52,958 nucleotides of DNA, taken from a virus (taxonomy: Duplodnaviria > Heunggongvirae > Uroviricota > Caudoviricetes). Position numbers and translations under genes: made by a program. The notes under the pieces were generated by a model. It ran no database searches and was not told the origin of the DNA. It saw only the letters and a list, made by a program, of their open reading frames with translations. This document shows positions 4,288 through 28,786 of this stretch, piece by piece; the first letter of the stretch is position 1; every line of letters begins with the position of its first letter. The stretch is from IMG/VR virus record IMGVR_UViG_3300041409_000458; one strand, 5' to 3'.

Positions 4288-5352
4288 ATGTCTTGTCCAG
4301 ATAACAACCCATGTAATCCTTGCACCGAACATCAGGATTGTGGATGCACAAATCCAAACACGTTCGGATGTACAACTTATTCAGGTACTCATCTAGAGTG
4401 CCTTGATGTAGATAATGCAGAGGATGGAGATTCTATCTTAGCCAAGATAGATGCCAAAGTATGCGATATTGGTAAAGTTCTTATTAGTGGTGATGACACA
4501 TGTCCAGAATATCTCATAGATAAACTGGAAGCTGGTACAAATATTACTCTGACAGAGGTAGGTACTGGATGTGACAGAACACTAAGAATTGATGCTGTAG
4601 AAGGTGGAGTTCCTATTGACATAAATGTAAGAGTTTCCGGAGCTGATACTACATCAGGATATCTTAACAATAAGTTAACAACAGGTGCTTATATAAGTAA
4701 AACTATTAATAACGCTGCTGGTAATGAAAATCTTGAGTTAGATGTAGTTCCAGTGAACTTACTATCAACTGACCCTGATAATCCTTTATATATTGGTACA
4801 GATGGTGGTCTTATGTCAACTTGTATAGCTCCAGATGGTTCCGAAACTAAGGTTATACAGGGAACAGGAGTAACAGTAACAGGTCAGGGTACTATAATTG
4901 ACCCTTACATAGTTTCCACTAATCCTTCCATCCAAGTAGCTCGTCCTTGTTTCGATGCTGTATGGAGAACAATCAATTTAGTCCCAACAGGAAATGCAAA
5001 TGTGATATTCTTAGCTGGTGCTCCAGAGTACCGTTACCGTTTTGATGGCACTCTCGAGTTCAGAGGTTCTATCTCTTTCACTGTAAATTTTGCAGCTAAT
5101 ACTTCAGCCAACAGGAAGTTTACAATTACCATGGGAAATATCCCAACAACTTGTTTGTCTCTTGTAGAACAAGCAGGTACAGCAGATTTAAAGTCAATAA
5201 CTTATATTGAGAGTGTAGGTCAGATGTATAATTACATCATCCGGAAATCAACCCAAAACCTACTTTTAGAGTTCCAGTCATCTTTCACTTCTGCAACCTC
5301 AAAGGTTATCGTAGTGAACCTCGATGGAGCAATCTCTCATCCAAATATTTAA
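4288..5352 (+). CDS. Putative tail/fibre-associated structural protein
   Basis: 354 aa; Cys-rich N-terminus sharing the C..YSG..L.CL...D...I..KID..VC pattern with paralogs A1/A2; repeated YL..KL.AG..I motifs; beta-rich C-terminus; followed by a terminator. Confidence 0.7.
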   Translation: MSCPDNNPCNPCTEHQDCGCTNPNTFGCTTYSGTHLECLDVDNAEDGDSILAKIDAKVCDIGKVLISGDDTCPEYLIDKLEAGTNITLTEVGTGCDRTLRIDAVEGGVPIDINVRVSGADTTSGYLNNKLTTGAYISKTINNAAGNENLELDVVPVNLLSTDPDNPLYIGTDGGLMSTCIAPDGSETKVIQGTGVTVTGQGTIIDPYIVSTNPSIQVARPCFDAVWRTINLVPTGNANVIFLAGAPEYRYRFDGTLEFRGSISFTVNFAANTSANRKFTITMGNIPTTCLSLVEQAGTADLKSITYIESVGQMYNYIIRKSTQNLLLEFQSSFTSATSKVIVVNLDGAISHPNI

Positions 5353-5410: not shown

Positions 5411-5442
5411 TTTGGCAGTTTCAAAACTTTTTCGTATATTAT
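5411..5442 (+). promoter_or_regulatory. Bacteroidota-type promoter (degenerate -7 element)
   Basis: TTTG(5411)-N20-TATATTAT; ATG of the NUMOD4-HNH gene follows 3 nt later. Confidence 0.55.
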
Positions 5443-5891: not shown

Positions 5892-5993
5892 ATGAAACAA
5901 TCAAAAACAGACATATTGAATAAACTCATAAAAGAGTTAATCAAAGAAAACAAAAGACTAACCGAATATATTTTACTCCAAAAGAAAAAATAA
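5892..5993 (+). CDS. Possible 33-aa coiled-coil peptide
   Basis: ATG-started ORF MKQSKTDILNKLIKELIKENKRLTEYILLQKKK fills the gap between the HNH gene and the next promoter. Confidence 0.4.
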   Translation: MKQSKTDILNKLIKELIKENKRLTEYILLQKKK

Positions 5994-5994
5994 A

Positions 5995-6026
5995 TTTGGT
6001 AAATACAAATAATTGTTGTATATTTG
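5995..6026 (+). promoter_or_regulatory. Bacteroidota sigma-A-type promoter for leader 1 and tRNA block 1
   Basis: TTTG(5995-5998)-N20-TATATTTG(6019-6026). Confidence 0.8.
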
Positions 6027-6030
6027 CTTT

Positions 6031-6171
6031 ATGATACTTGATACAAACATATATGGAGGATGTGGCTGTGGGAAACCAAAGCCTAAGAAAGGTTTACGCC
6101 AGTGGCATACGCCAACCTGTACACAATGTCCGTTTGGATGTAGTGGGGGTCTCTGTATACGTACTAGTTAA
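6031..6171 (+). CDS. Putative attenuator leader peptide 1 (46 aa, MILDTNIYGGCGCGKPKPKKGLRQWHTPTCTQCPFGCSGGLCIRTS)
   Basis: Translated by hand. Codons 6097-6135 (RQWHTPTCTQCPF) match all nine tRNAs of the downstream block; the 3' end overlaps the antiterminator strand. Confidence 0.75.
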   Translation: MILDTNIYGGCGCGKPKPKKGLRQWHTPTCTQCPFGCSGGLCIRTS

Positions 6172-6222
6172 AATTCGTACAGTTCTATACAAAAGACCCT
6201 CTAGGAAACTAGGGGGTTTTTA
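6145..6222 (+). terminator. Attenuator 1: alternative antiterminator and intrinsic terminator
   Basis: Terminator AGACCCTCTAG-GAAA-CTAGGGGGTTTTT (6195-6222). GGGGGTCTCTGTATA (6145-6159) can pair instead with TATACAAAAGACCCTC (6186-6201). Confidence 0.8.
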
Positions 6223-6226
6223 ATTT

Positions 6227-6299
6227 CGAGATGTTGGCTAATTGGTAAGCCACTTGCTTTGGGAGCAAGAAGATGCAGGTTCGACCCTTGTCATCTCGA
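6227..6299 (+). tRNA. trnP: tRNA-Pro(TGG)
   Basis: Cloverleaf: CGAGATG/CATCTCG acceptor, CTTGC-ttTGGga-GCAAG anticodon arm, TTCGA T-loop. Confidence 0.93.
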
Positions 6300-6305
6300 C
6301 ATAAT

Positions 6306-6379
6306 GCTTCTTATGCAGATATGGTGCTGCACCTCACTTGTAATGAGGATTAGAGAGTTTTCGAGTAACTCAAGAAGCT
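6306..6379 (+). tRNA. trnT: tRNA-Thr(TGT)
   Basis: GCTTCTT/AAGAAGC acceptor; CCTCA-ctTGTaa-TGAGG; T-arm GAGTT-ttcgagt-AACTC. Confidence 0.9.
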
Positions 6380-6407
6380 CTAAACATAAAAGCCGAAGGG
6401 TAAATAT

Positions 6408-6821
6408 ATGAATACAGATAAAAAATCTGGGCAGCTAGGTATGCCACATGGTACAGCAAATGCAAGATTGCGTAAAGCTATTATTTTCAAACTTCTAAAA
6501 GATGCAAAGTTAAACTTTTGTTTTCAATGCTCTGCAGAAATTGATAAGATTGAGACTTTATCTATTGAGCACAAAATTCCTTACTTAGACTCGCATGACC
6601 CTAAAAAATTGTTCTTTGATTTGGATAATATTGCATTTTCTCATTTAAAGTGTAATATAGATGCAAGAAGGATACCTGAGAAAATAGTGGATAAGGATGA
6701 TTTTAGAGTTAAACATGGTAGGTCTACTTATGAAAGAAGAGGATGCAGATGTGATATTTGTAAGGAAGACAAGAGAATACATAATAGTAAAAGATTTAAT
6801 AATGGTCGTATGGCTGAGTGA
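6408..6821 (+). CDS. HNH endonuclease with C-terminal Cys-rich (CRCDIC) zinc-binding element
   Basis: CFQC...SIEHKIP...DNIAFSHLKCN; stop codon lies inside the 5' end of tRNA-Cys. Confidence 0.85.
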   Translation: MNTDKKSGQLGMPHGTANARLRKAIIFKLLKDAKLNFCFQCSAEIDKIETLSIEHKIPYLDSHDPKKLFFDLDNIAFSHLKCNIDARRIPEKIVDKDDFRVKHGRSTYERRGCRCDICKEDKRIHNSKRFNNGRMAE

Positions 6822-6878
6822 ACAAAGGCACACGTCTGCAAAACGTTACAATCGTCAGTTTGAATCTGACTACGACCT
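6804..6878 (+). tRNA. trnC: tRNA-Cys(GCA)
   Basis: GGTCGTA/TACGACC acceptor; CACGT-ctGCAaa-ACGTT; T-arm GTCAG-tttgaat-CTGAC. Confidence 0.9.
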
Positions 6879-6886
6879 CAAGGTTT

Positions 6887-6946
6887 CCGGAATGAAGAAT
6901 GCCACTTGTTGAGAAGTGATGGTCAGTCCATCAGTGAAAAATCCGG
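6887..6946 (+). ncRNA. Candidate structured RNA (three-way junction), unclassified
   Basis: CCGGA/TCCGG closing stem enclosing the CACTT/AAGTG and ATGG/CCAT hairpins; sits between two tRNAs. Confidence 0.4.
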
Positions 6947-6952
6947 GTTTAT

Positions 6953-7024
6953 GGTGATGTAGCTCATCGGTAGAGCGAAGCCCTGAAGAGGCTTGCGTGG
7001 GGAGTTCGATTCTCCCTTTCACCA
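6953..7024 (+). tRNA. trnF: tRNA-Phe(GAA)
   Basis: AAGCC-ctGAAga-GGCTT; GGGAG-ttcgatt-CTCCC; acceptor has one T-T mismatch. Confidence 0.9.
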
Positions 7025-7030
7025 CATAAC

Positions 7031-7140
7031 AGCTCTTGGTCCGTGGGTGTTGAAAAACGTGATAACGGACCTCCAAAGTAGTAGTACAGCACTCAAAGAC
7101 GTACATTCACTGGATAGCCTCAGCCATAAATCGAGGCAAC
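7031..7140 (+). ncRNA. Candidate structured RNA (three hairpins, possible kissing loops), unclassified
   Basis: GGTCCGT/ACGGACC, TCCA..GTAC/GTAC..TGGA and GCCTC/GAGGC stems; loop GGGTGTT is complementary to loop AGCACTC. Confidence 0.5.
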
Positions 7141-7142
7141 AC

Positions 7143-7215
7143 ACGGGTGTAGCTCAGCTGGTAGAGCTTTGGTCTCCAAAACCAAGAGTCAGGGGTTCGA
7201 GTCCTCTCATCCGTG
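7143..7215 (+). tRNA. trnW: tRNA-Trp(CCA)
   Basis: ACGGGTG/CATCCGT; TTGGT-ctCCAaa-ACCAA; canonical D and T arms. Confidence 0.94.
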
Positions 7216-7220
7216 CATAT

Positions 7221-7291
7221 TGCTCCATGGTGTAATGGTAACATCAGACTCTTTGACAGTCAAGTTATAGGTTCGAGTCCTATTGGAGTAA
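7221..7291 (+). tRNA. trnQ: tRNA-Gln(TTG)
   Basis: TGCTCCA/TGGAGTA; AGACT-ctTTGac-AGTCA; ATAGG-ttcgagt-CCTAT. Confidence 0.92.
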
Positions 7292-7298
7292 CATATAT

Positions 7299-7369
7299 TG
7301 CGATATTGTGTAACGGTAGCACACGGGTCTCTGAAGCCCTTAGTTGGAGTTCGAATCTCTGTATCGCAA
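7299..7369 (+). tRNA. trnQ: tRNA-Gln(CTG)
   Basis: TGCGATA/TATCGCA; CGGGT-ctCTGaa-GCCCT; TGGAG-ttcgaat-CTCTG. Confidence 0.92.
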
Positions 7370-7371
7370 CT

Positions 7372-7447
7372 GTGGTATTAGCTTAGCTGGTTAAAGTATC
7401 TGATTGTGATTCAGAGGACACGGATTCGAATTCCGTATATCACCCCA
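7372..7447 (+). tRNA. trnH: tRNA-His(GTG), CCA encoded
   Basis: GTGGTAT/ATATCAC; TCTGA-ttGTGat-TCAGA; C73 discriminator followed by CCA. Confidence 0.93.
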
Positions 7448-7448
7448 T

Positions 7449-7522
7449 GCAGAATTAGTTTAATGGAAAAACACTTCGCTACGAACGAAGAGATATGTAG
7501 AGTTCGAATCTCACATTCTGCT
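7449..7522 (+). tRNA. trnR: tRNA-Arg(ACG)
   Basis: GCAGAAT/ATTCTGC; CTTCG-ctACGaa-CGAAG; T-stem has a bulged A. Confidence 0.88.
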
Positions 7523-7532
7523 CAAAAATAAA

Positions 7533-7564
7533 TTTGGTAGATAGGAATTAATTTCGTATATTTG
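7533..7564 (+). promoter_or_regulatory. Bacteroidota sigma-A-type promoter for leader 2 and tRNA block 2
   Basis: TTTG(7533)-N20-TATATTTG(7557-7564). Confidence 0.8.
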
Positions 7565-7582
7565 TATTCTAAAGCATAGAAC

Positions 7583-7705
7583 ATGATAACAGGATTAATA
7601 ATCGGTGGAATTGTGGGATTCGTAATTGGAGCACTTGTTTTCCGTAACAATGCTAAACAGGGAGAAAAAATTATAGATAAACTTAAAAAGACAGAAAGCA
7701 AATAA
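7583..7705 (+). CDS. 40-aa single-pass membrane peptide (MITGLIIGGIVGFVIGALVFRNNAKQGEKIIDKLKKTESK)
   Basis: Hydrophobic Gly-rich N-terminal helix and basic tail; TAATG overlap with leader 2. Confidence 0.7.
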   Translation: MITGLIIGGIVGFVIGALVFRNNAKQGEKIIDKLKKTESK

Positions 7706-7788
7706 TGTACAACTTAAATATGATAGTGGATAGAATGATTGGGGCGAACGAGAAATCGGCTCCGGGATTCCTATTGGCTGTCATGTAA
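7705..7788 (+). CDS. Putative attenuator leader peptide 2 (27 aa, MYNLNMIVDRMIGANEKSAPGFLLAVM)
   Basis: Starts in a TAATG overlap. Codons 7717-7755 (NMIVDRMIGANEK) cover all ten amino acids of tRNA block 2; the next codons form the antiterminator strand. Confidence 0.75.
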   Translation: MYNLNMIVDRMIGANEKSAPGFLLAVM

Positions 7789-7844
7789 TAAAAGATATTA
7801 CCACCAAAAAGAGTCCCGGAGCCCACAAAGCTTCGGGATTTTTT
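7758..7844 (+). terminator. Attenuator 2: alternative antiterminator and intrinsic terminator
   Basis: GGCTCCGGGATTC (7758-7770) pairs over 13 bp with GAGTCCCGGAGCC (7811-7823); this excludes the terminator TCCCGGAGC-ccacaaa-GCTTCGGGA-TTTTTT (7814-7844). Confidence 0.85.
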
Positions 7845-7851
7845 ATTAAAT

Positions 7852-7924
7852 ACCGTCGGAGCTTATGTGGACAAGCTGCACTCTTTTAAAGTGAGGACAA
7901 AGGGTTCGAATCCCTTGGGCGGTA
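7852..7924 (+). tRNA. trnK: tRNA-Lys(TTT)
   Basis: GCACT-ctTTTaa-AGTGA; AAGGG-ttcgaat-CCCTT; G-G mismatch at acceptor pair 7. Confidence 0.87.
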
Positions 7925-7927
7925 CAA

Positions 7928-8000
7928 GCTTCTATAGCTCAATAGGTAGAGTAATGAGCTCTTAACTCATGGGTTTTCGGTTCGAGTCCGAATGGAAGCA
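7928..8000 (+). tRNA. trnK: tRNA-Lys(CTT)
   Basis: GCTTCTA/TGGAAGC; ATGAG-ctCTTaa-CTCAT. Confidence 0.93.
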
Positions 8001-8016
8001 CAAAAGTTCTTAAAAA

Positions 8017-8048
8017 TTTGGTAGATTAAGAGTTTTTTCGTATATTTG
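8017..8048 (+). promoter_or_regulatory. Bacteroidota-type promoter upstream of HNH gene
   Basis: TTTG(8017)-N20-TATATTTG(8041-8048); ATG 4 nt later. Confidence 0.75.
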
Positions 8049-8052
8049 TTCT

Positions 8053-8400
8053 ATGAAGAATCCAACAAAAGAACAAACAAAGGAGTGGAATAGAACATAC
8101 TATCTTAAAAACAAAGAGAAAAGGAGAGCACAGTATAACAGAACCAGAAAAGAAATAGCTGAATGGTTCAGAGAATACAAGAAAACTCTCAGTTGTAAAA
8201 TCTGTGGTTTTGCTCATCCTACAGCCTTATCGTTCCATCATAGGAAAGGTGAGAAAAAATTAGGAGAGGTCTCTGTGATGGCATGGGATGGAGCAAGAAA
8301 GAAATTAGAGAATGAGATTGCAAAATGTGATGTATTATGTCATAATTGTCATGCCATACATCATTATGATGAGAGAAATAAAGATGCCTCTTTAGCTTAG
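8053..8400 (+). CDS. HNH endonuclease
   Basis: CKICG...ALSFHH...EIAKCDVLCHNCHAIHH; stop codon lies inside the 5' end of tRNA-Val. Confidence 0.9.
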   Translation: MKNPTKEQTKEWNRTYYLKNKEKRRAQYNRTRKEIAEWFREYKKTLSCKICGFAHPTALSFHHRKGEKKLGEVSVMAWDGARKKLENEIAKCDVLCHNCHAIHHYDERNKDASLA

Positions 8401-8460
8401 TTGGTTTAAAGCGTCTGCCTTACAAGCAGAAGACCATCCGTTCGAATCGGATAAGAGGTA
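8386..8460 (+). tRNA. trnV: tRNA-Val(TAC)
   Basis: GCCTCTT/AAGAGGT; TCTGC-ctTACaa-GCAGA. Confidence 0.93.
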
Positions 8461-8465
8461 CAGAT

Positions 8466-8539
8466 GGAGCCATCGTTTAATGGATTAGGACCTTTGTTTC
8501 CTAAACAAAGATGTGTCAGTTCGAGTCTGACTGGCTCTA
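8466..8539 (+). tRNA. trnR: tRNA-Arg(CCT)
   Basis: GGAGCCA/TGGCTCT; TTTGT-ttCCTaa-ACAAA. Confidence 0.93.
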
Positions 8540-8546
8540 CAAATAT

Positions 8547-8619
8547 GCACCCGTCGTTCAATGGATTAGGACAACTGCCTTCTAAGCAGTTTATAGCAGT
8601 TCGAATCTGCTCAGGTGTA
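8547..8619 (+). tRNA. trnR: tRNA-Arg(TCT)
   Basis: GCACCCG/CAGGTGT (one mismatch); ACTGC-ctTCTaa-GCAGT. Confidence 0.9.
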
Positions 8620-8662
8620 CAAGGTCAGTTAATGTTTCTGCGTGGAGTTAAAAAACATATTC

Positions 8663-8736
8663 GTCTGAGAAGCTTAAGTGGTATAAGCTACTGCCTGTTA
8701 AGCAGAAGATAGGAGGTTCGAGCCCTCTCTTGGACG
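8663..8736 (+). tRNA. trnN: tRNA-Asn(GTT)
   Basis: GTCTGAG/CTTGGAC, G discriminator; ACTGC-ctGTTaa-GCAGA. Confidence 0.88.
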
Positions 8737-8744
8737 CAATTATA

Positions 8745-8820
8745 CGCAGGGTAGGGAAGTGGTCATATCCTTCAAGGCTCATAACCTTCGAGAACGCTGG
8801 TTCGAATCCAGCCCCTGCAT
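8745..8820 (+). tRNA. trnfM: tRNA-Met(CAT), initiator-like
   Basis: C1-A72 mismatch (CGCAGGG/CCCTGCA) typical of fMet tRNA; ctCATaa loop; only two G-C pairs adjoin the anticodon loop. Confidence 0.82.
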
Positions 8821-8826
8821 CTAAAT

Positions 8827-8900
8827 TGGGTATTAGAATAGTGGTCTAATTCACTACTCTCATAAGGTAGCATTCACCAGTTCGAATCTGGTATACCCAA
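8827..8900 (+). tRNA. trnM: tRNA(CAT): elongator Met or lysidine-modified Ile2
   Basis: TGGGTAT/ATACCCA; CTACT-ctCATaa-GGTAG; Met versus Ile2 cannot be resolved by eye. Confidence 0.85.
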
Positions 8901-8918
8901 CAATTGTTCTAAAATATA

Positions 8919-8950
8919 TTTGGAATTGTGAGAAATATTTGGTATATTTG
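8919..8950 (+). promoter_or_regulatory. Bacteroidota-type promoter upstream of HTH-HNH and YkuK genes
   Basis: TTTG(8919)-N20-TATATTTG(8943-8950). Confidence 0.75.
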
Positions 8951-8967
8951 TATTAAATATTCGAACA

Positions 8968-9558
8968 ATGAAATTAGATAGGGATGAAGTATATAAACTT
9001 TTAGATGAAGGGAAGAAACCAGTAGAAGTTGCAAGAATCTTAGGTTGTGTAAGATCTGTTATATCTTACTATAAATCTCAAAGAAATTCACCTAAAAGAA
9101 AAGGAAACAATATACCTTTAACTATAAAACAAAAGGGAAAAATTAATGAACTTTATATTGAAGGAAAAGCTTTTAATGAGATAAGAGAAATAACAGGCTT
9201 TTCACTTCAAACAATTAGAAAATATCTTATAGTTCCAAAAAGATTAAAACAAAAGAAAAGAAGAACAATTTATTTTCTTAAATGGAGACTTCGTAAGAAA
9301 GCAATTCTTGTTGATTATAAAGGTGGAAAGTGTGAAGATTGTGGATATGATGAATGTATAGAAGCTCTACATTTTCATCATCTTAATCCTAAAGAAAAAG
9401 AGTTTAATGTTTGTGGAAAGTCAGTATCTATTGAAAAACTAAAAAAGGAAGCAGATAAATGTGTACTTTTGTGTGCTAATTGTCACATTAAGAGACATAA
9501 TTGTAAAACCTGTACAGAAGCCTTAGAAGAAGGTAAAAAATTTAGAGATAGAGAATGA
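8968..9558 (+). CDS. HNH endonuclease with two N-terminal HTH-like segments
   Basis: KPVEVARILGCVRSVISYY and AFNEIREITGFSLQTIRKY helices; CEDCGY...ALHFHH...KCVLLCANCHIKRH. Confidence 0.9.
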   Translation: MKLDRDEVYKLLDEGKKPVEVARILGCVRSVISYYKSQRNSPKRKGNNIPLTIKQKGKINELYIEGKAFNEIREITGFSLQTIRKYLIVPKRLKQKKRRTIYFLKWRLRKKAILVDYKGGKCEDCGYDECIEALHFHHLNPKEKEFNVCGKSVSIEKLKKEADKCVLLCANCHIKRHNCKTCTEALEEGKKFRDRE

Positions 9559-10031
9559 CAAAATATTTCAGAAAAAAGGATGGTGAGTTAGTCAACATAG
9601 TTGAACACACTTTAGAGCAGATTCAGCAGAATCCGAATGTCAAGATATACATTGGAACGGACAGTCAAGACGAAGGTCCATGCAGTGAATATGCAACTTG
9701 TATAGTATACAGATATGGCAGAAACGGAGCACACTTCATCTACTCAAGAGAGTCAGTTCCAAGGATTTGGGATATGTTCACTCGTCTGTACACAGAAGGT
9801 ACACGTACCATTGAAGTTGCAGAATTGATAAGAGCAGAAATTCTTTCTATAAATTTTGAAGCACTTGAGTTCGATTACGCTGATGTTAAGAAGACTCTTT
9901 CCACTCGTGTAGTGTCAGCTTTGAGAGGGTGGGTAAAAGGAATGGGTTTGAATGCTTCTTTCAAAGGTGGAGAGAAAATAGCAACAAAGTCTGCTGACCA
10001 CGTATGTAGACACAAAGAAATGTATAAATAA
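9555..10031 (+). CDS. RNase H-like YkuK (DUF458) family protein
   Basis: VKIYIGTDSQ...YATCIVYRYGRNGAH...RLYTE...EVAE...K...ATKSADH pattern matches the YkuK family as I recall it. Confidence 0.8.
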   Translation: MTKYFRKKDGELVNIVEHTLEQIQQNPNVKIYIGTDSQDEGPCSEYATCIVYRYGRNGAHFIYSRESVPRIWDMFTRLYTEGTRTIEVAELIRAEILSINFEALEFDYADVKKTLSTRVVSALRGWVKGMGLNASFKGGEKIATKSADHVCRHKEMYK

Positions 10032-10035
10032 ACAT

Positions 10036-10083
10036 GGCGAGTTGAAAGGGAATCCACAGTGGGGACACTGCCCCTCGCCTCCA
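10036..10083 (+). ncRNA. Candidate 48-nt structured RNA ending in T-CCA
   Basis: GGCGAG/CTCGCC, GGG/CCC and CAGTG-GGGA-CACTG stacked helices with two 6-nt 5' bulges. Confidence 0.45.
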
Positions 10084-10084
10084 C

Positions 10085-10157
10085 GCAGTAGTAGCTCATC
10101 TGGTAGAGCACTATCCTTCCAAGTTAGGGGCGGCAGGTTCGAGTCCTGTCTACTGCA
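10085..10157 (+). tRNA. trnG: tRNA-Gly(TCC)
   Basis: GCAGTAG/CTACTGC; ctTCCaa loop; T-T mismatch in the anticodon stem. Confidence 0.9.
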
Positions 10158-10162
10158 CAATT

Positions 10163-10234
10163 GCAGGTGTAGCACAACGGTTAGTGCATCGGCTTGCCAA
10201 GTCGAGGATAAGAGTTCGATTCTCTTTATCTGCT
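10163..10234 (+). tRNA. trnG: tRNA-Gly(GCC)
   Basis: GCAGGTG/TATCTGC; TCGGC-ttGCCaa-GTCGA; U discriminator. Confidence 0.93.
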
Positions 10235-10239
10235 CTTAA

Positions 10240-10313
10240 CATGCGTTCGACAAGTGGTCTAAGTCGTCATCCTTTCAAGGTGATATTCACGGGTTCAAAT
10301 CCCGTACGCATGA
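10240..10313 (+). tRNA. trnE: tRNA-Glu(TTC)
   Basis: CATGCGT/ACGCATG; TCATC-ctTTCaa-GGTGA. Confidence 0.92.
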
Positions 10314-10314
10314 C

Positions 10315-10430
10315 AATGTAGTAGCTAATGCTGATATAGTTATTCGAAGGTCAGAGGATTTTCCAGCATTTCCAATCTGACACTAGCCAGAGATGTGATG
10401 GGCACTTCGACAATGACTACTACATTACCA
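10315..10430 (+). ncRNA. Candidate ~116-nt structured RNA ending in A-CCA, unclassified
   Basis: 10-bp terminal stem AATGTAGTAG/CTACTACATT, internal TCGAAG/CTTCGA and GTCAGA/TCTGAC stems; flanked directly by tRNAs. Confidence 0.55.
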
Positions 10431-10503
10431 CGAGGTATGGTTGAATGGTTACAATGCCGGATTGTCAATCCGTGCGGTACGGGTTCGAATCCCGTTATCT
10501 CGG
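10431..10503 (+). tRNA. trnD: tRNA-Asp(GTC)
   Basis: CGAGGTA/TATCTCG, G discriminator; CCGGA-ttGTCaa-TCCGT. Confidence 0.92.
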
Positions 10504-10508
10504 CAAAT

Positions 10509-10582
10509 GCATCTATAGCTCAACTGGTCGGAGCAGGACGCTTATATCGTCAAGGTTTTCAGTTCGAATCTGAATAGATGTA
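10509..10582 (+). tRNA. trnI: tRNA-Ile(TAT)
   Basis: GCATCTA/TAGATGT; GGACG-ctTATat-CGTCA; UAU anticodon is rare in bacteria. Confidence 0.88.
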
Positions 10583-10583
10583 C

Positions 10584-10886
10584 ATGAAAAGCAAAGATTT
10601 TGCAAGAACAAGAACAAGAAATAGAAACTTTGTTAGGGACTATTTATCTAAGCATCCTTGCACTGATTGTGGGAACAATAACATTGTTGTATTGGACTTC
10701 GATCATGTGAAAGGAGAAAAGAAAGCAAATATCTCCAAGATGGTCTCTAATGGAACTTCTTTAGTTTCTCTCTTGAGGGAAATAGAGAAATGTGAAGTTA
10801 GATGTGCCAATTGTCACAGAATTGTTACACATCAGAGAAGATTGCAGGAAAGACCTAAAGAAGGAATTGATTATTTTGAATATTAA
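10584..10886 (+). CDS. HNH endonuclease between the two tRNA-Ile genes
   Basis: CTDCG...LDFDHV...EIEKCEVRCANCHRIVT; ATG at 10584 preferred because 10578 lies inside the tRNA. Confidence 0.88.
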   Translation: MKSKDFARTRTRNRNFVRDYLSKHPCTDCGNNNIVVLDFDHVKGEKKANISKMVSNGTSLVSLLREIEKCEVRCANCHRIVTHQRRLQERPKEGIDYFEY

Positions 10887-10887
10887 T

Positions 10888-10960
10888 GCAGGTATAGCTC
10901 AGTTGGTAGAGCAACGTCCTGATACGACGTAGGTCCAAGGCTCGAATCCTTGTATCTGCA
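10888..10960 (+). tRNA. trnI: tRNA-Ile(GAT)
   Basis: GCAGGTA/TATCTGC; ACGTC-ctGATac-GACGT; T-loop CTCGAAT (C instead of T54). Confidence 0.9.
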
Positions 10961-11022
10961 CAAGAAATAACCTCTGGTATAGAAGCACACCATTGCGTGA
11001 TTGGTTAAGTTATTTCGTCCAT

Positions 11023-11095
11023 GGGGGTGAAGCACAAGTGGACGTGCAACAGCTTTGCAAGCTGAAGGTTGAGGGTTCGAAGCCCTTCATCTCCA
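11023..11095 (+). tRNA. trnA: tRNA-Ala(TGC)
   Basis: GGGGGTG/CATCTCC with the G3-U70 Ala identity pair; ttTGCaa loop. Confidence 0.93.
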
Positions 11096-11146
11096 CAATT
11101 GTAGAAAAAATACCACATTATTGTAGAAGAAATACAACATTAAAAA

Positions 11147-12758: not shown

Positions 12759-13115
12759 ATGGATAAACATATGAAAAGTCAAATTAAAGTAGATTTCACC
12801 GATAGAGGTGAAGGAAAAGGTTTAGAGCCAGTTATTGCTATTAAGTTAATAGACAGTGATGATGTAAGAGATGGTCTTTTAAAGACATTTTTTCAATCTT
12901 TGGGAGGAGAGAGTTCTTGGTTATCAGTTTCCTTTGACCACCACATAATAAATGGTGAAAGTGACAAGACAACCTATATTAGAGTTTTTCCGATTCAATC
13001 ACACGAATTAGCTGAAACTGCAGAAAGAATAGATAGCAGGATATCAGGCAGAATAGGTTCTACAGGTCCTAATAACTGTAATCCAATAACAAATTCAACA
13101 GGTTACAAATTATAA
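12759..13115 (+). CDS. Hypothetical protein, translationally coupled to leader 3
   Basis: 118-aa ORF; TAATG overlap at 13113-13117. Confidence 0.7.
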   Translation: MDKHMKSQIKVDFTDRGEGKGLEPVIAIKLIDSDDVRDGLLKTFFQSLGGESSWLSVSFDHHIINGESDKTTYIRVFPIQSHELAETAERIDSRISGRIGSTGPNNCNPITNSTGYKL

Positions 13116-13186
13116 TGAAAACAATAACATCATATTATTCCAGTTTATCACTCTTGATTAAAAGTCGAGCTGGAAGAACTATGTAA
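13115..13186 (+). CDS. Putative attenuator leader peptide 3 (23 aa, MKTITSYYSSLSLLIKSRAGRTM)
   Basis: Codons 13130-13156 (SYYSSLSLL) match the downstream Leu/Ser/Ser/Tyr tRNAs; the 3' codons form the antiterminator strand. Confidence 0.75.
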   Translation: MKTITSYYSSLSLLIKSRAGRTM

Positions 13187-13327: not shown

Positions 13328-13336
13328 CAATTATAA

Positions 13337-13422
13337 GGAAGGTCCCAAAGGAGAGGTACACTGTCTTGAAAACAGCTAGGTCGGTGATGAGCCACGTAAG
13401 AGTTCGAGTCTCTTACCTTCCG
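13337..13422 (+). tRNA. trnS: tRNA-Ser(TGA)
   Basis: GGAAGGT/ACCTTCC, G discriminator; ctTGAaa loop; long variable arm. Confidence 0.88.
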
Positions 13423-13427
13423 CACAA

Positions 13428-13512: not shown

Positions 13513-13518
13513 CTACCT

Positions 13519-13589
13519 GAGTCAGAGGTCAGGGCAACCAGCAATGACTGTAAATCATAGGCACGAGAGTTCGATTCTCTCCTAACCCA
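13519..13589 (+). tRNA. trnY: Atypical or degenerate tRNA-Tyr(GTA)
   Basis: ATGA-ctGTAaa-TCAT arm and GAGAG-ttcgatt-CTCTC T-arm are clear; short D region, no long variable arm, two acceptor mismatches; 5' end uncertain (13519 or 13526). Confidence 0.6.
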
Positions 13590-13941
13590 CTTTTTCTCTG
13601 TGATACTTCTGTCTGTAGTATCTTCTACCATTACCTTTAGAGGTACTATGTCCTTTCGTCAATGAATGACAGTTTGGACAAAGAAGAGTTAAATTATTTT
13701 CAGAATGATTCATTGAATTTCCGTCTATATGTTCTACCTCTAGAGGAATACTATTGGTAGTAGGATTTAGTTTAGACCATTCACATAGAGTACATTTACT
13801 CTCATACTTTTCAAATAGGTATTTTCTTACATGGTCAGAAACCTTTCCATGACCTTGTAAATCTCCTTTCCCACCTGTTACTTCTCCATCTTTCCACTTT
13901 TGGATATATTCCTCATATCCATATCTTTTTAGTTTTTTCAT
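13582..13941 (-). CDS. HNH endonuclease (only supported minus-strand gene)
   Basis: CTLCEW...PLEVEHIDGNSMNHSENNLTLLCPNCHSLT; its last codons and stop overlap the tRNA-Tyr 3' acceptor strand. Confidence 0.9.
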   Translation of the reverse strand: MKKLKRYGYEEYIQKWKDGEVTGGKGDLQGHGKVSDHVRKYLFEKYESKCTLCEWSKLNPTTNSIPLEVEHIDGNSMNHSENNLTLLCPNCHSLTKGHSTSKGNGRRYYRQKYHREKVG

Positions 13942-27918: not shown

Positions 27919-27950
27919 TTTGGTTTCCTGAGAATGATATCGTATCTTTG
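27919..27950 (+). promoter_or_regulatory. Bacteroidota-type promoter of the LAGLIDADG gene
   Basis: TTTG(27919)-N20-TATCTTTG(27943-27950); ATG at 27956. Confidence 0.72.
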
Positions 27951-27955
27951 TGATT

Positions 27956-28786
27956 ATGAAGAGGATGTCTAAATTAGAAATAGAAAAAATGATTGAAATG
28001 TACGAAACAGGAAAGTATAACTTCAAGGATTTGGATACATATTTTAATAAAGGGTTAGGAACTTGTAGAGGGTTACTTGAAAGAAGAGGATACAAAGCAA
28101 AGTCTATTTCAGAAATCAATAGAAAGTATTCTTTAAAAGAAGATTTTTTTGATAAAATAGATAGTGAAGAAAAAGCTTATATGTTAGGATTTATTTATGC
28201 TGATGGTTGTAATTTTCCAGAAGGAACAAGAGTAGTAATAGGATTACAAGAAAAAGATAAAACTCTTTTAGAAACTTTTAAAACTTTGTTAAATTATGAT
28301 AGACCATTATATTACAGAAAAGCTTCTACATCTTCGTATAGAAATAGCTCAGCTCAATATATTTTAACCATATCAAGCAAAAGAATAAGTGATAAACTAA
28401 CAAAATTAGGAGCTGTAAAAGCTAAATCTTTAATTTTAACATTTCCTTCTGAAGACCAAGTTCCTGAAAGTCTTCACAACCACTTTATCAGAGGATATTT
28501 TGATGGTGATGGTTGTATAACAGGAGTAAAACCACATTTTTCCAGAAACAGTAAACTTTTGGAATTTGATTGGTCAGTAGTGGGAACTTTTGATTTTGTA
28601 AGTTCAATTCAAAAAATAATGGTAAAAGAATTAAATTTAACTATGACCAAAATTAAAAAACATAGAAATGTCTTTTATCTTGAATATAGTGGAAATAAAC
28701 AATGTAAGAAAATAGCTGAATGGATGTATAAAGATTCATCTATATTTCTTGAAAGAAAATATGAAAAATTCAAAAGTATAAAATAA
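27956..28786 (+). CDS. Free-standing LAGLIDADG homing endonuclease (two motifs)
   Basis: YMLGFIYADGC and FIRGYFDGDGC; N-terminal HTH-like segment; no intron ends seen. Confidence 0.92.
   Translation: MKRMSKLEIEKMIEMYETGKYNFKDLDTYFNKGLGTCRGLLERRGYKAKSISEINRKYSLKEDFFDKIDSEEKAYMLGFIYADGCNFPEGTRVVIGLQEKDKTLLETFKTLLNYDRPLYYRKASTSSYRNSSAQYILTISSKRISDKLTKLGAVKAKSLILTFPSEDQVPESLHNHFIRGYFDGDGCITGVKPHFSRNSKLLEFDWSVVGTFDFVSSIQKIMVKELNLTMTKIKKHRNVFYLEYSGNKQCKKIAEWMYKDSSIFLERKYEKFKSIK

Follow-up and report, generated by a model that had tools for sequence, protein, structure and literature searches.

A predicted leader-peptide attenuator ahead of a tRNA block in a crAss-like phage

The roles of phage tRNA genes and the timing of their use are debated; they are usually proposed to compensate for codon usage, to replace host tRNAs that have been degraded, or to evade anticodon nucleases. 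The IMG/VR virus record IMGVR_UViG_3300041409_000458 (Caudoviricetes) raises the question of what governs the expression of such genes, as the first tRNA block of its array is preceded by a promoter, a short open reading frame (ORF) and a hairpin with a U-run. The stretch analyzed here, 52,958 nucleotides in length and called the window, is part of a 146.7-kb genome of a crAss-like phage. Its positions 5995-6221 probably constitute a ribosome-mediated (leader-peptide) transcription attenuator before the tRNA block. The ORF, the match of its codons to the tRNAs, three alternative helices, and the conservation and covariation of these parts are read directly from the DNA. Twelve relatives with the tRNA array, all of them uncultured genomes or fragments from viral and metagenome collections, were compared; with the window they give 13 genomes.

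Leader reading frame and regulatory codons

6031-6171, plus strand: leader ORF of 46 codons and TAA (stop at 6169-6171), with homologous ORFs in the 12 relatives
6097-6135, plus strand: regulatory run of 13 codons, in which eight amino-acid classes and the nine tRNAs of block 1 are all represented
6227-7523, plus strand: tRNA block 1 with nine tRNAs according to ARAGORN, interrupted by an HNH endonuclease ORF (6408-6821)

Block 1 has the order Pro(UGG), Thr(UGU), HNH ORF, Cys(GCA), Phe(GAA), Trp(CCA), Gln(UUG), Gln(CUG), His(GUG), Arg(ACG). The ATG at 6031 is the sole in-frame start downstream of the promoter. Codons 23-35, in frame with this ATG, are CGC CAG TGG CAT ACG CCA ACC TGT ACA CAA TGT CCG TTT and specify Arg, Gln, Trp, His, Thr, Pro, Thr, Cys, Thr, Gln, Cys, Pro and Phe. 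Only the classes Arg (as CGN), Gln, Trp, His, Thr, Pro, Cys and Phe occur, which are the amino acids of the block 1 tRNAs. Each of the nine tRNAs has at least one codon in the run; CAA and CAG both occur, Arg is encoded by CGC, and 12 of the 13 codons are directly cognate to block 1 tRNAs.

A preliminary description made from the letters of the window had proposed that this run covers every tRNA of block 1, and the sequence together with the anticodons assigned by ARAGORN bears this out. It had assumed a share of 25% for the residues concerned and arrived at a probability near 1e-8. Counted in 120 long ORFs of the genome, the eight classes (Arg as CGN only) make up 0.236 of the codons, and at this frequency 13 consecutive codons within the set have P = 7e-9, close to the earlier estimate. 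If all eight classes must also be present, P is 2.4e-10; correction for every ORF position in three frames results in P = 2.4e-8. A six-frame scan of the whole 146.7-kb genome returned the run as joint longest of its class, the only other 13-codon run of the same classes being a homopolymer-like stretch of Thr. In 30 Markov random genomes, scanned in six frames, the longest run mostly comprised 9-10 codons, and one genome reached 13. An ORF in another frame (6038-6223) was rejected, as only the frame of the run stays open in all relatives.

Alternative helices of the leader transcript

6115-6131, plus strand: region 1, the 3′ half of the run, pairing with 6136-6150
6136-6159, plus strand: region 2, pairing with region 1 via 6136-6150 or with region 3 via 6145-6159
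6186-6204, plus strand: region 3, in which TATACA (6186-6191) and AGACCCTC (6194-6201) pair with region 2, while 6192-6204 form the 5′ arm of the terminator
6192-6221, plus strand: intrinsic terminator (3:4) with a 13-bp stem, a GAAA loop (6205-6208) and a U-run ending 5 nucleotides before tRNA-Pro

The free transcript 6031-6225 is predicted to fold well below its shuffled versions (z = -4.0). Helix 1:2, a hairpin at 6115-6150 with -12.1 kcal/mol, overlaps the regulatory codons. The antiterminator 2:3 (6144-6202) reaches -18.8 kcal/mol and joins GGGGGTCT (6145-6152) to AGACCCTC, as well as TGTATA (6154-6159) to TATACA. The terminator 3:4 attains -18.0 kcal/mol. For either fold, none of 200 shuffled sequences was as good. 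The hairpin at 6192-6221 was not listed by a simple terminator scan of the window. Because region 3 is common to both, 2:3 and 3:4 are mutually exclusive. An antiterminator that sequesters the 5′ arm of the GAAA-loop terminator had already been described from the letters, and both predicted folds were recovered in the present analysis. Not contained in that description was the conserved helix 1:2 between the 3′ half of the run and region 2, which completes a trp-type logic. The ORF passes through region 2 and its stop codon lies about 10-20 nucleotides after region 2 and 25-35 nucleotides before the terminator stem in all 13 genomes, a geometry that would fit the attenuator although it is unlike that of trpL.

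Conservation in related genomes

The relatives were found via a conserved tRNA-Lys word and via homologs, 55-85% identical, of a 354-residue protein encoded at 4288-5352 of the window. They encode crAss ring proteins, and a 158-residue protein inside the array is 48% identical in relative L002. The tRNA-Lys pattern yielded two relatives in viral contigs and three in metagenome contigs; 12 further metagenome matches were dropped, as they lacked tRNA genes. The DNA pattern CARTGTCCGTTTGGAT retrieved one true relative from viral contigs, the other hits being chance matches. Cultured phage records contained no relative, either by DNA or by the 354-residue protein.

In each of the 12 relatives, a promoter precedes a short ORF whose run of 13-15 codons draws only on the same eight classes; a U-run hairpin and the same tRNA block come next. 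Their leader ORFs comprise 24-31 codons, with runs such as RQHTWFTFTQCPF (L004), QRTHTWFTCPQCPF (L018) and QRHTWPTFTQCTT (L034). Order and residues of the run differ among the relatives, but every replacement stays in the set, and the peptide is free to vary on both the N- and the C-terminal side of the run; just 40% of the nonsynonymous neighbors of the run codons remain in the set. Between the window and its closest relative, L038, four run codons differ, all synonymously; in the 11 codons past the run, no synonymous and three nonsynonymous changes were counted. Arg is encoded 12 times in the runs, always by CGC or CGT, although AGR is three times more common in the genome. L042 shares the 354-residue protein and flanking genes; the 21 kb of it that were covered show no tRNA genes, no such run and no leaders. 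Block 2 is missing from L034, which retains blocks 1 and 3, and no ORF resembling the leader of block 2 was found in it. The replacements within the set, the free flanks, the synonymous differences to L038, the CGY codons for Arg and the states of L042 and L034 argue for selection on the codon class in the run.

The RNA elements are retained as well. A U-run hairpin equivalent to the terminator occurs in 12 of 12 relatives. The duplex of region 2 with region 3, complementary to the 5′ arm of the terminator, begins 4-12 nucleotides after the run in 13 of 13 genomes, and in nine of these it is matched by at most six of 300 shuffles. In all 13, region 2 also pairs with nucleotides inside the run if the nascent RNA is folded up to region 2. 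In an anchored, ungapped pair table, canonical pairs were present in 9-13 of the 13 genomes at about 11 positions of 2:3 and 11 positions of 3:4, and most positions of either helix showed 3-4 types of canonical pair. At two positions of region 3, changes extend over regions 2, 3 and 4: U-A-U in the window versus C-G-C in L018, and G-C-G in L004 versus A-U-A in L018. Such joint changes of the partners are what alternative pairing of one strand predicts. With a mid-run ribosome simulated by masking, the minimum free energy (MFE) structure changed to the antiterminator in five of the 13 genomes.

Promoter and start of translation

5995-6026, plus strand: Bacteroidota-type promoter with TTTG at -33 (5995-5998) and the -7 box TATATTTG (6019-6026); the ATG follows after 4 nucleotides
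6031-6096, plus strand: N-terminal 22 codons of the leader, with Gly-Cys-Gly-Cys-Gly and rich in Lys and Pro; a separate mini-ORF in most relatives

The promoter agrees with the Bacteroidota consensus of TTTG near -33 and TAnnTTTG near -7 (PMC7366714). The pattern TTTG-N17-21-TAnnTTTG-N3-8-ATG has three matches in the window, with 0.22 expected, and the promoter unit TTGGTA-N17-TATATT recurs at 7534 and 8018. The short distance of 4 nucleotides between the -7 box and the ATG, pointed out in the preliminary description, is confirmed at 6019-6031; the same spacing follows the promoter in nine of the 13 leaders and at the HNH gene at 8053. The combination of -33 TTTG, -7 TAnnTTTG and an ATG within 4-5 nucleotides was also seen at 8017-8055 (HNH gene) and at 27919-27958 (another gene). 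These arrangements suggest that leaderless or near-leaderless mRNAs are used repeatedly by the phage. Very short mRNA leaders are few in Bacteroides, about 3.7% (PMC7366714). A leaderless start at the ATG at 6031 is plausible; a promoter-like site upstream (5412-5440) could also give a longer mRNA.

The N-terminal codons correspond to a mini-ORF for a peptide of about 18-23 residues. The window and L038 have it fused in frame to the leader; in most relatives it is free-standing and precedes leader 1. A separate promoter serves it in L018 (3370-3429, minus strand) and L025 (8616-8669, minus strand), and in L034 and L039 it lies directly upstream of the leader. By sequence, the leader of the window is a fusion with a mini-gene that is separate in most relatives. 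A homolog search with a 52-residue version of the peptide starting at TTG returned only a mini-ORF of L001 resembling the N-terminal part. This similar mini-ORF (L001, 5002-5073) is situated beside an M15 peptidase gene at a locus without tRNA genes.

The tRNA array and two further leaders

Two further short ORFs in the window precede tRNA blocks. Leader 2 (7705-7788) contains a run at 7717-7755 with codons for Asn, Met, Ile, Val, Asp, Arg(AGA), Gly, Ala, Glu and Lys; the tRNAs at 7852-11096 belong to these same ten classes (P = 5.8e-6). Leader 3 (13115-13186) has a run at 13130-13156 with only Ser, Tyr and Leu before a Leu/Ser block (P = 2.5e-7). Leaders 1, 2 and 3 show no sequence relationship to one another, and the 20 amino acids are divided up among them; leaders 2 and 3 are kept in relatives. 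The Arg codons are divided by anticodon family: CGY in leader 1 accompanies Arg-ACG in block 1, and AGA in leader 2 accompanies Arg-UCU in block 2.

Several details of the array were recorded in passing. The T-arm of tRNA-Thr(UGU) (6306-6380), an ARAGORN call, looks atypical; the Rfam tRNA model recovered eight of the nine block 1 tRNAs and missed this one even at expectation values (E) up to 1. CTC or CTA codons in leader 3 go along with a Leu-UAG tRNA that is present in relatives, and ARAGORN finds none in the window. At 13330-13425 and 13514-13590, tRNAs of the Ser(UGA) and Tyr(GUA) types are discernible by eye, and relatives have such genes there; in these two stretches of the window no tRNA was called by ARAGORN or by Rfam at the gathering score. 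Long non-tRNA spacers at 7026-7142 and 10315-10430 were noted in the preliminary description as possible structured RNAs. A tRNA with the anticodon CUA is located between blocks 2 and 3 in L036 (14938-15009), L037 (19701-19773), L041 (16426-16497) and L043 (7817-7889). As this anticodon would read TAG, it suggests a reassignment of TAG in these four relatives; ARAGORN detected no such tRNA in the window. The array of L025, which is oriented as reverse complement, has acquired insertions of HNH endonuclease genes, each preceded by a promoter of its own (about 4590-5010 and 7700-8150). One splits an apparent tRNA-Pro after the anticodon region; another is placed between the terminator of leader 2 and a second copy of the 3′ part of this terminator.

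Proposed mechanism

In the proposed attenuator, transcription would start at or next to the ATG at 6031, and a ribosome would translate the 46-codon leader. If 6097-6135 were decoded quickly, the ribosome would cross region 2 to the stop codon at 6169, 3:4 would form, and RNA polymerase would halt 5 nucleotides before tRNA-Pro. If any codon of the run were slow, the ribosome would stall on region 1 and leave region 2 free to capture region 3 in the antiterminator 2:3; the polymerase would then read on into the nine tRNA genes. A transcript without translation would form 1:2 and 3:4, and transcription would end. The tRNAs are probably made only when ribosomes read the cognate codons slowly, a reading derived from the codon match and the helices. 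Because the sensed codons are read by tRNAs of the same block, the arrangement would act as a negative feedback on decoding capacity, in which a shortage of tRNA would cause stalling and stalling would yield more of exactly those tRNAs. We infer translation of the leader, stalling and regulated termination, as well as tRNA rather than amino-acid supply as the signal.

More tentative, and somewhat doubtful in its full extent, is the proposal that the three attenuators together form a phage-borne tRNA homeostat in several phage lineages. The array would stay mostly silent while host tRNAs suffice, and a block would be induced only on shortage of the tRNAs for its codons. Such a shortage could come from phage-driven host shut-off, from a codon demand of the phage beyond the host pool, or from a host defence that cleaves tRNAs. 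Attenuation by ribosomes would on this view serve to control RNA genes of the translation apparatus itself.

A sensor in cis that reads the speed of decoding at just the codons served by the tRNAs downstream would mean that the phage measures tRNA sufficiency and supplies tRNAs on demand, and the role and timing of phage tRNAs would become testable with a 230-nucleotide template. Leader-peptide attenuation, known from amino-acid metabolism, would then apply to RNA genes too, and to expression signals of the Bacteroidota type, perhaps on a leaderless mRNA. Such a sensor would also offer synthetic biology a natural multi-input sensor of tRNA pools.

Counterevidence and alternative explanations

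A number of observations weigh against the attenuator as proposed. Region 2 begins only about 9 nucleotides past the run; stalling at the final two or three codons (Cys, Pro, Phe) would place the ribosome over part of region 2 and might not lead to antitermination. The one codon that is not directly cognate, ACC, would need four-way wobble by Thr-UGU, and it is kept in 13 of 13 runs. With just 1-3 codons per tRNA, compared with the tandem repeats of classical leaders, the sensitivity could be low. The run of L035 has no CGN codon for Arg, and whether CAA or CAG is used in a run does not depend on the genome having one Gln tRNA or two. All relatives share the same block content, with no case of a tRNA changing its block. 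The relatives are homologous, so that their agreement shows conservation and not independent origin. The array is, by its sequence, not a set of simple operons, because an HNH gene lies in the block, the next promoter follows directly and further promoters are found inside block 2.

Other objections concern the helices. The register of the pair table was optimized for each sequence, which favors pairing. MAFFT and RNAalifold, applied to the stretch from region 2 to region 3, gave no 2:3 consensus; this failure is attributed to indels that misalign region 3. With the run masked, the window and seven other genomes keep the terminator in the MFE structure of the full transcript. Because the terminator is retained in most genomes, no thermodynamic switch is claimed, and the switch would have to be kinetic, as is accepted for trpL.

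Among the alternatives, the one that survives best is nevertheless unlikely. It retains the attenuator hardware and assumes the supply of amino acids or the general rate of translation as the signal, as in starvation or host shut-off; synthesis of the tRNAs would then be coupled to the overall state of translation. What a stalled ribosome senses is the charged tRNA, and charging is also the signal of classical leaders; a missing tRNA and a missing amino acid are indistinguishable by stalling alone; 1-3 codons per class over eight classes would respond to any broad slow-down. Extra tRNA, however, brings no relief from amino-acid starvation, which leaves the block-by-block match without a clear benefit. 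The match also holds by anticodon family (Arg CGY with ACG, AGA with UCU) and not only by amino acid, which points to the tRNA species as the signal of the attenuator.

A further reading, which is very improbable, takes the product of the ORF as a small conserved peptide, rich in Cys and perhaps metal-binding, that has its own function; the hairpin would be an ordinary terminator or RNA-processing site, and the likeness to the tRNAs coincidental. The relatives do conserve the peptide, with a core resembling HTWFT..QCPFG; four or five Cys at CxxC-like distances are present in most versions, and the N-terminal part is a free-standing mini-gene elsewhere, including L001 with its locus devoid of tRNA genes. 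The Cys spacing is not conserved, however, and L034 and L039 keep the run with a single Cys and unrelated C-termini. A peptide function would leave unexplained the agreement of three unrelated short ORFs with their respective tRNA blocks, the strong terminator between promoter and tRNAs, and the covariation of regions 2, 3 and 4. An alignment of the leaders found no family among 5.8 billion proteins; such ORFs are evidently not called as genes, so the search is silent on their rarity.

A switch without translation, in which a protein or tRNAs bind the leader RNA in a T-box-like or TRAP-like manner and choose between 2:3 and 3:4 while the ORF is incidental, is scarcely credible. Alternative helices suit any antitermination mechanism, and translation of the leader is deduced. 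Against this stand the frame that is open in 13 of 13 genomes with its start right behind the promoter, and run differences that are synonymous or within the set, a constraint at codon level that RNA binding does not predict. Rfam, up to E = 1, contained neither a T-box nor another known leader family for this stretch. Chance, in the form of an unremarkable short ORF of this composition, can claim the second 13-codon run of the genome and the single random genome that reached 13 codons, but it is negligible in view of the position-specific probability of 2.4e-8, the two further matched leaders and the conservation in 12 relatives that are no near-identical copies (flanking protein 55-85% identical).

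Comparison with known systems

Attenuation through a translated leader remains the preferred explanation of 5995-6221. A cmscan search with Rfam over 5900-7600 (E up to 1) returned only tRNAs and weak chance matches, without a Trp, His, Leu, Thr or Phe leader or a T-box. In the full-text literature, no published leader-peptide control of tRNA genes was found, most subscription journals being outside the coverage.

The leaders trpL, hisL, pheL and leuL share with the element the promoter, the short ORF with regulatory codons and the three overlapping helices, with region 1 on the regulatory codons. The same logic is predicted for a stalled, a free-running and an absent ribosome. The two differ in several respects. 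Leaders of the trpL type regulate biosynthetic enzymes, whereas nine tRNA genes and an HNH endonuclease ORF follow here; genes for the biosynthesis, transport or charging of amino acids, by which leader-peptide attenuators are recognized, are not among them. The tandem repeats of one amino acid are replaced by eight classes with 1-3 codons each. Unlike in trpL-type leaders, the ORF extends across region 2 to a stop codon in the loop between regions 2 and 3. The element also belongs to a phage whose hosts are of the Bacteroidota type, and its mRNA is probably leaderless.

Control of parts of the translation apparatus by the state of a cognate tRNA is known as well. The pheM leader of pheST controls a synthetase and senses one amino acid, and a T-box binds one uncharged tRNA without translation; in this respect, the pheST attenuator and the T-box resemble the proposed element. 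Multivalent attenuators are the leader of ilvGMEDA, with codons for Ile, Leu and Val, and the thr leader, with codons for Thr and Ile. These represent the most similar type, as several amino acids are likewise sensed by one leader via mixed codons. They sense two or three related amino acids made by the operon, whereas the eight classes of the phage leader are defined only by the tRNA genes downstream.

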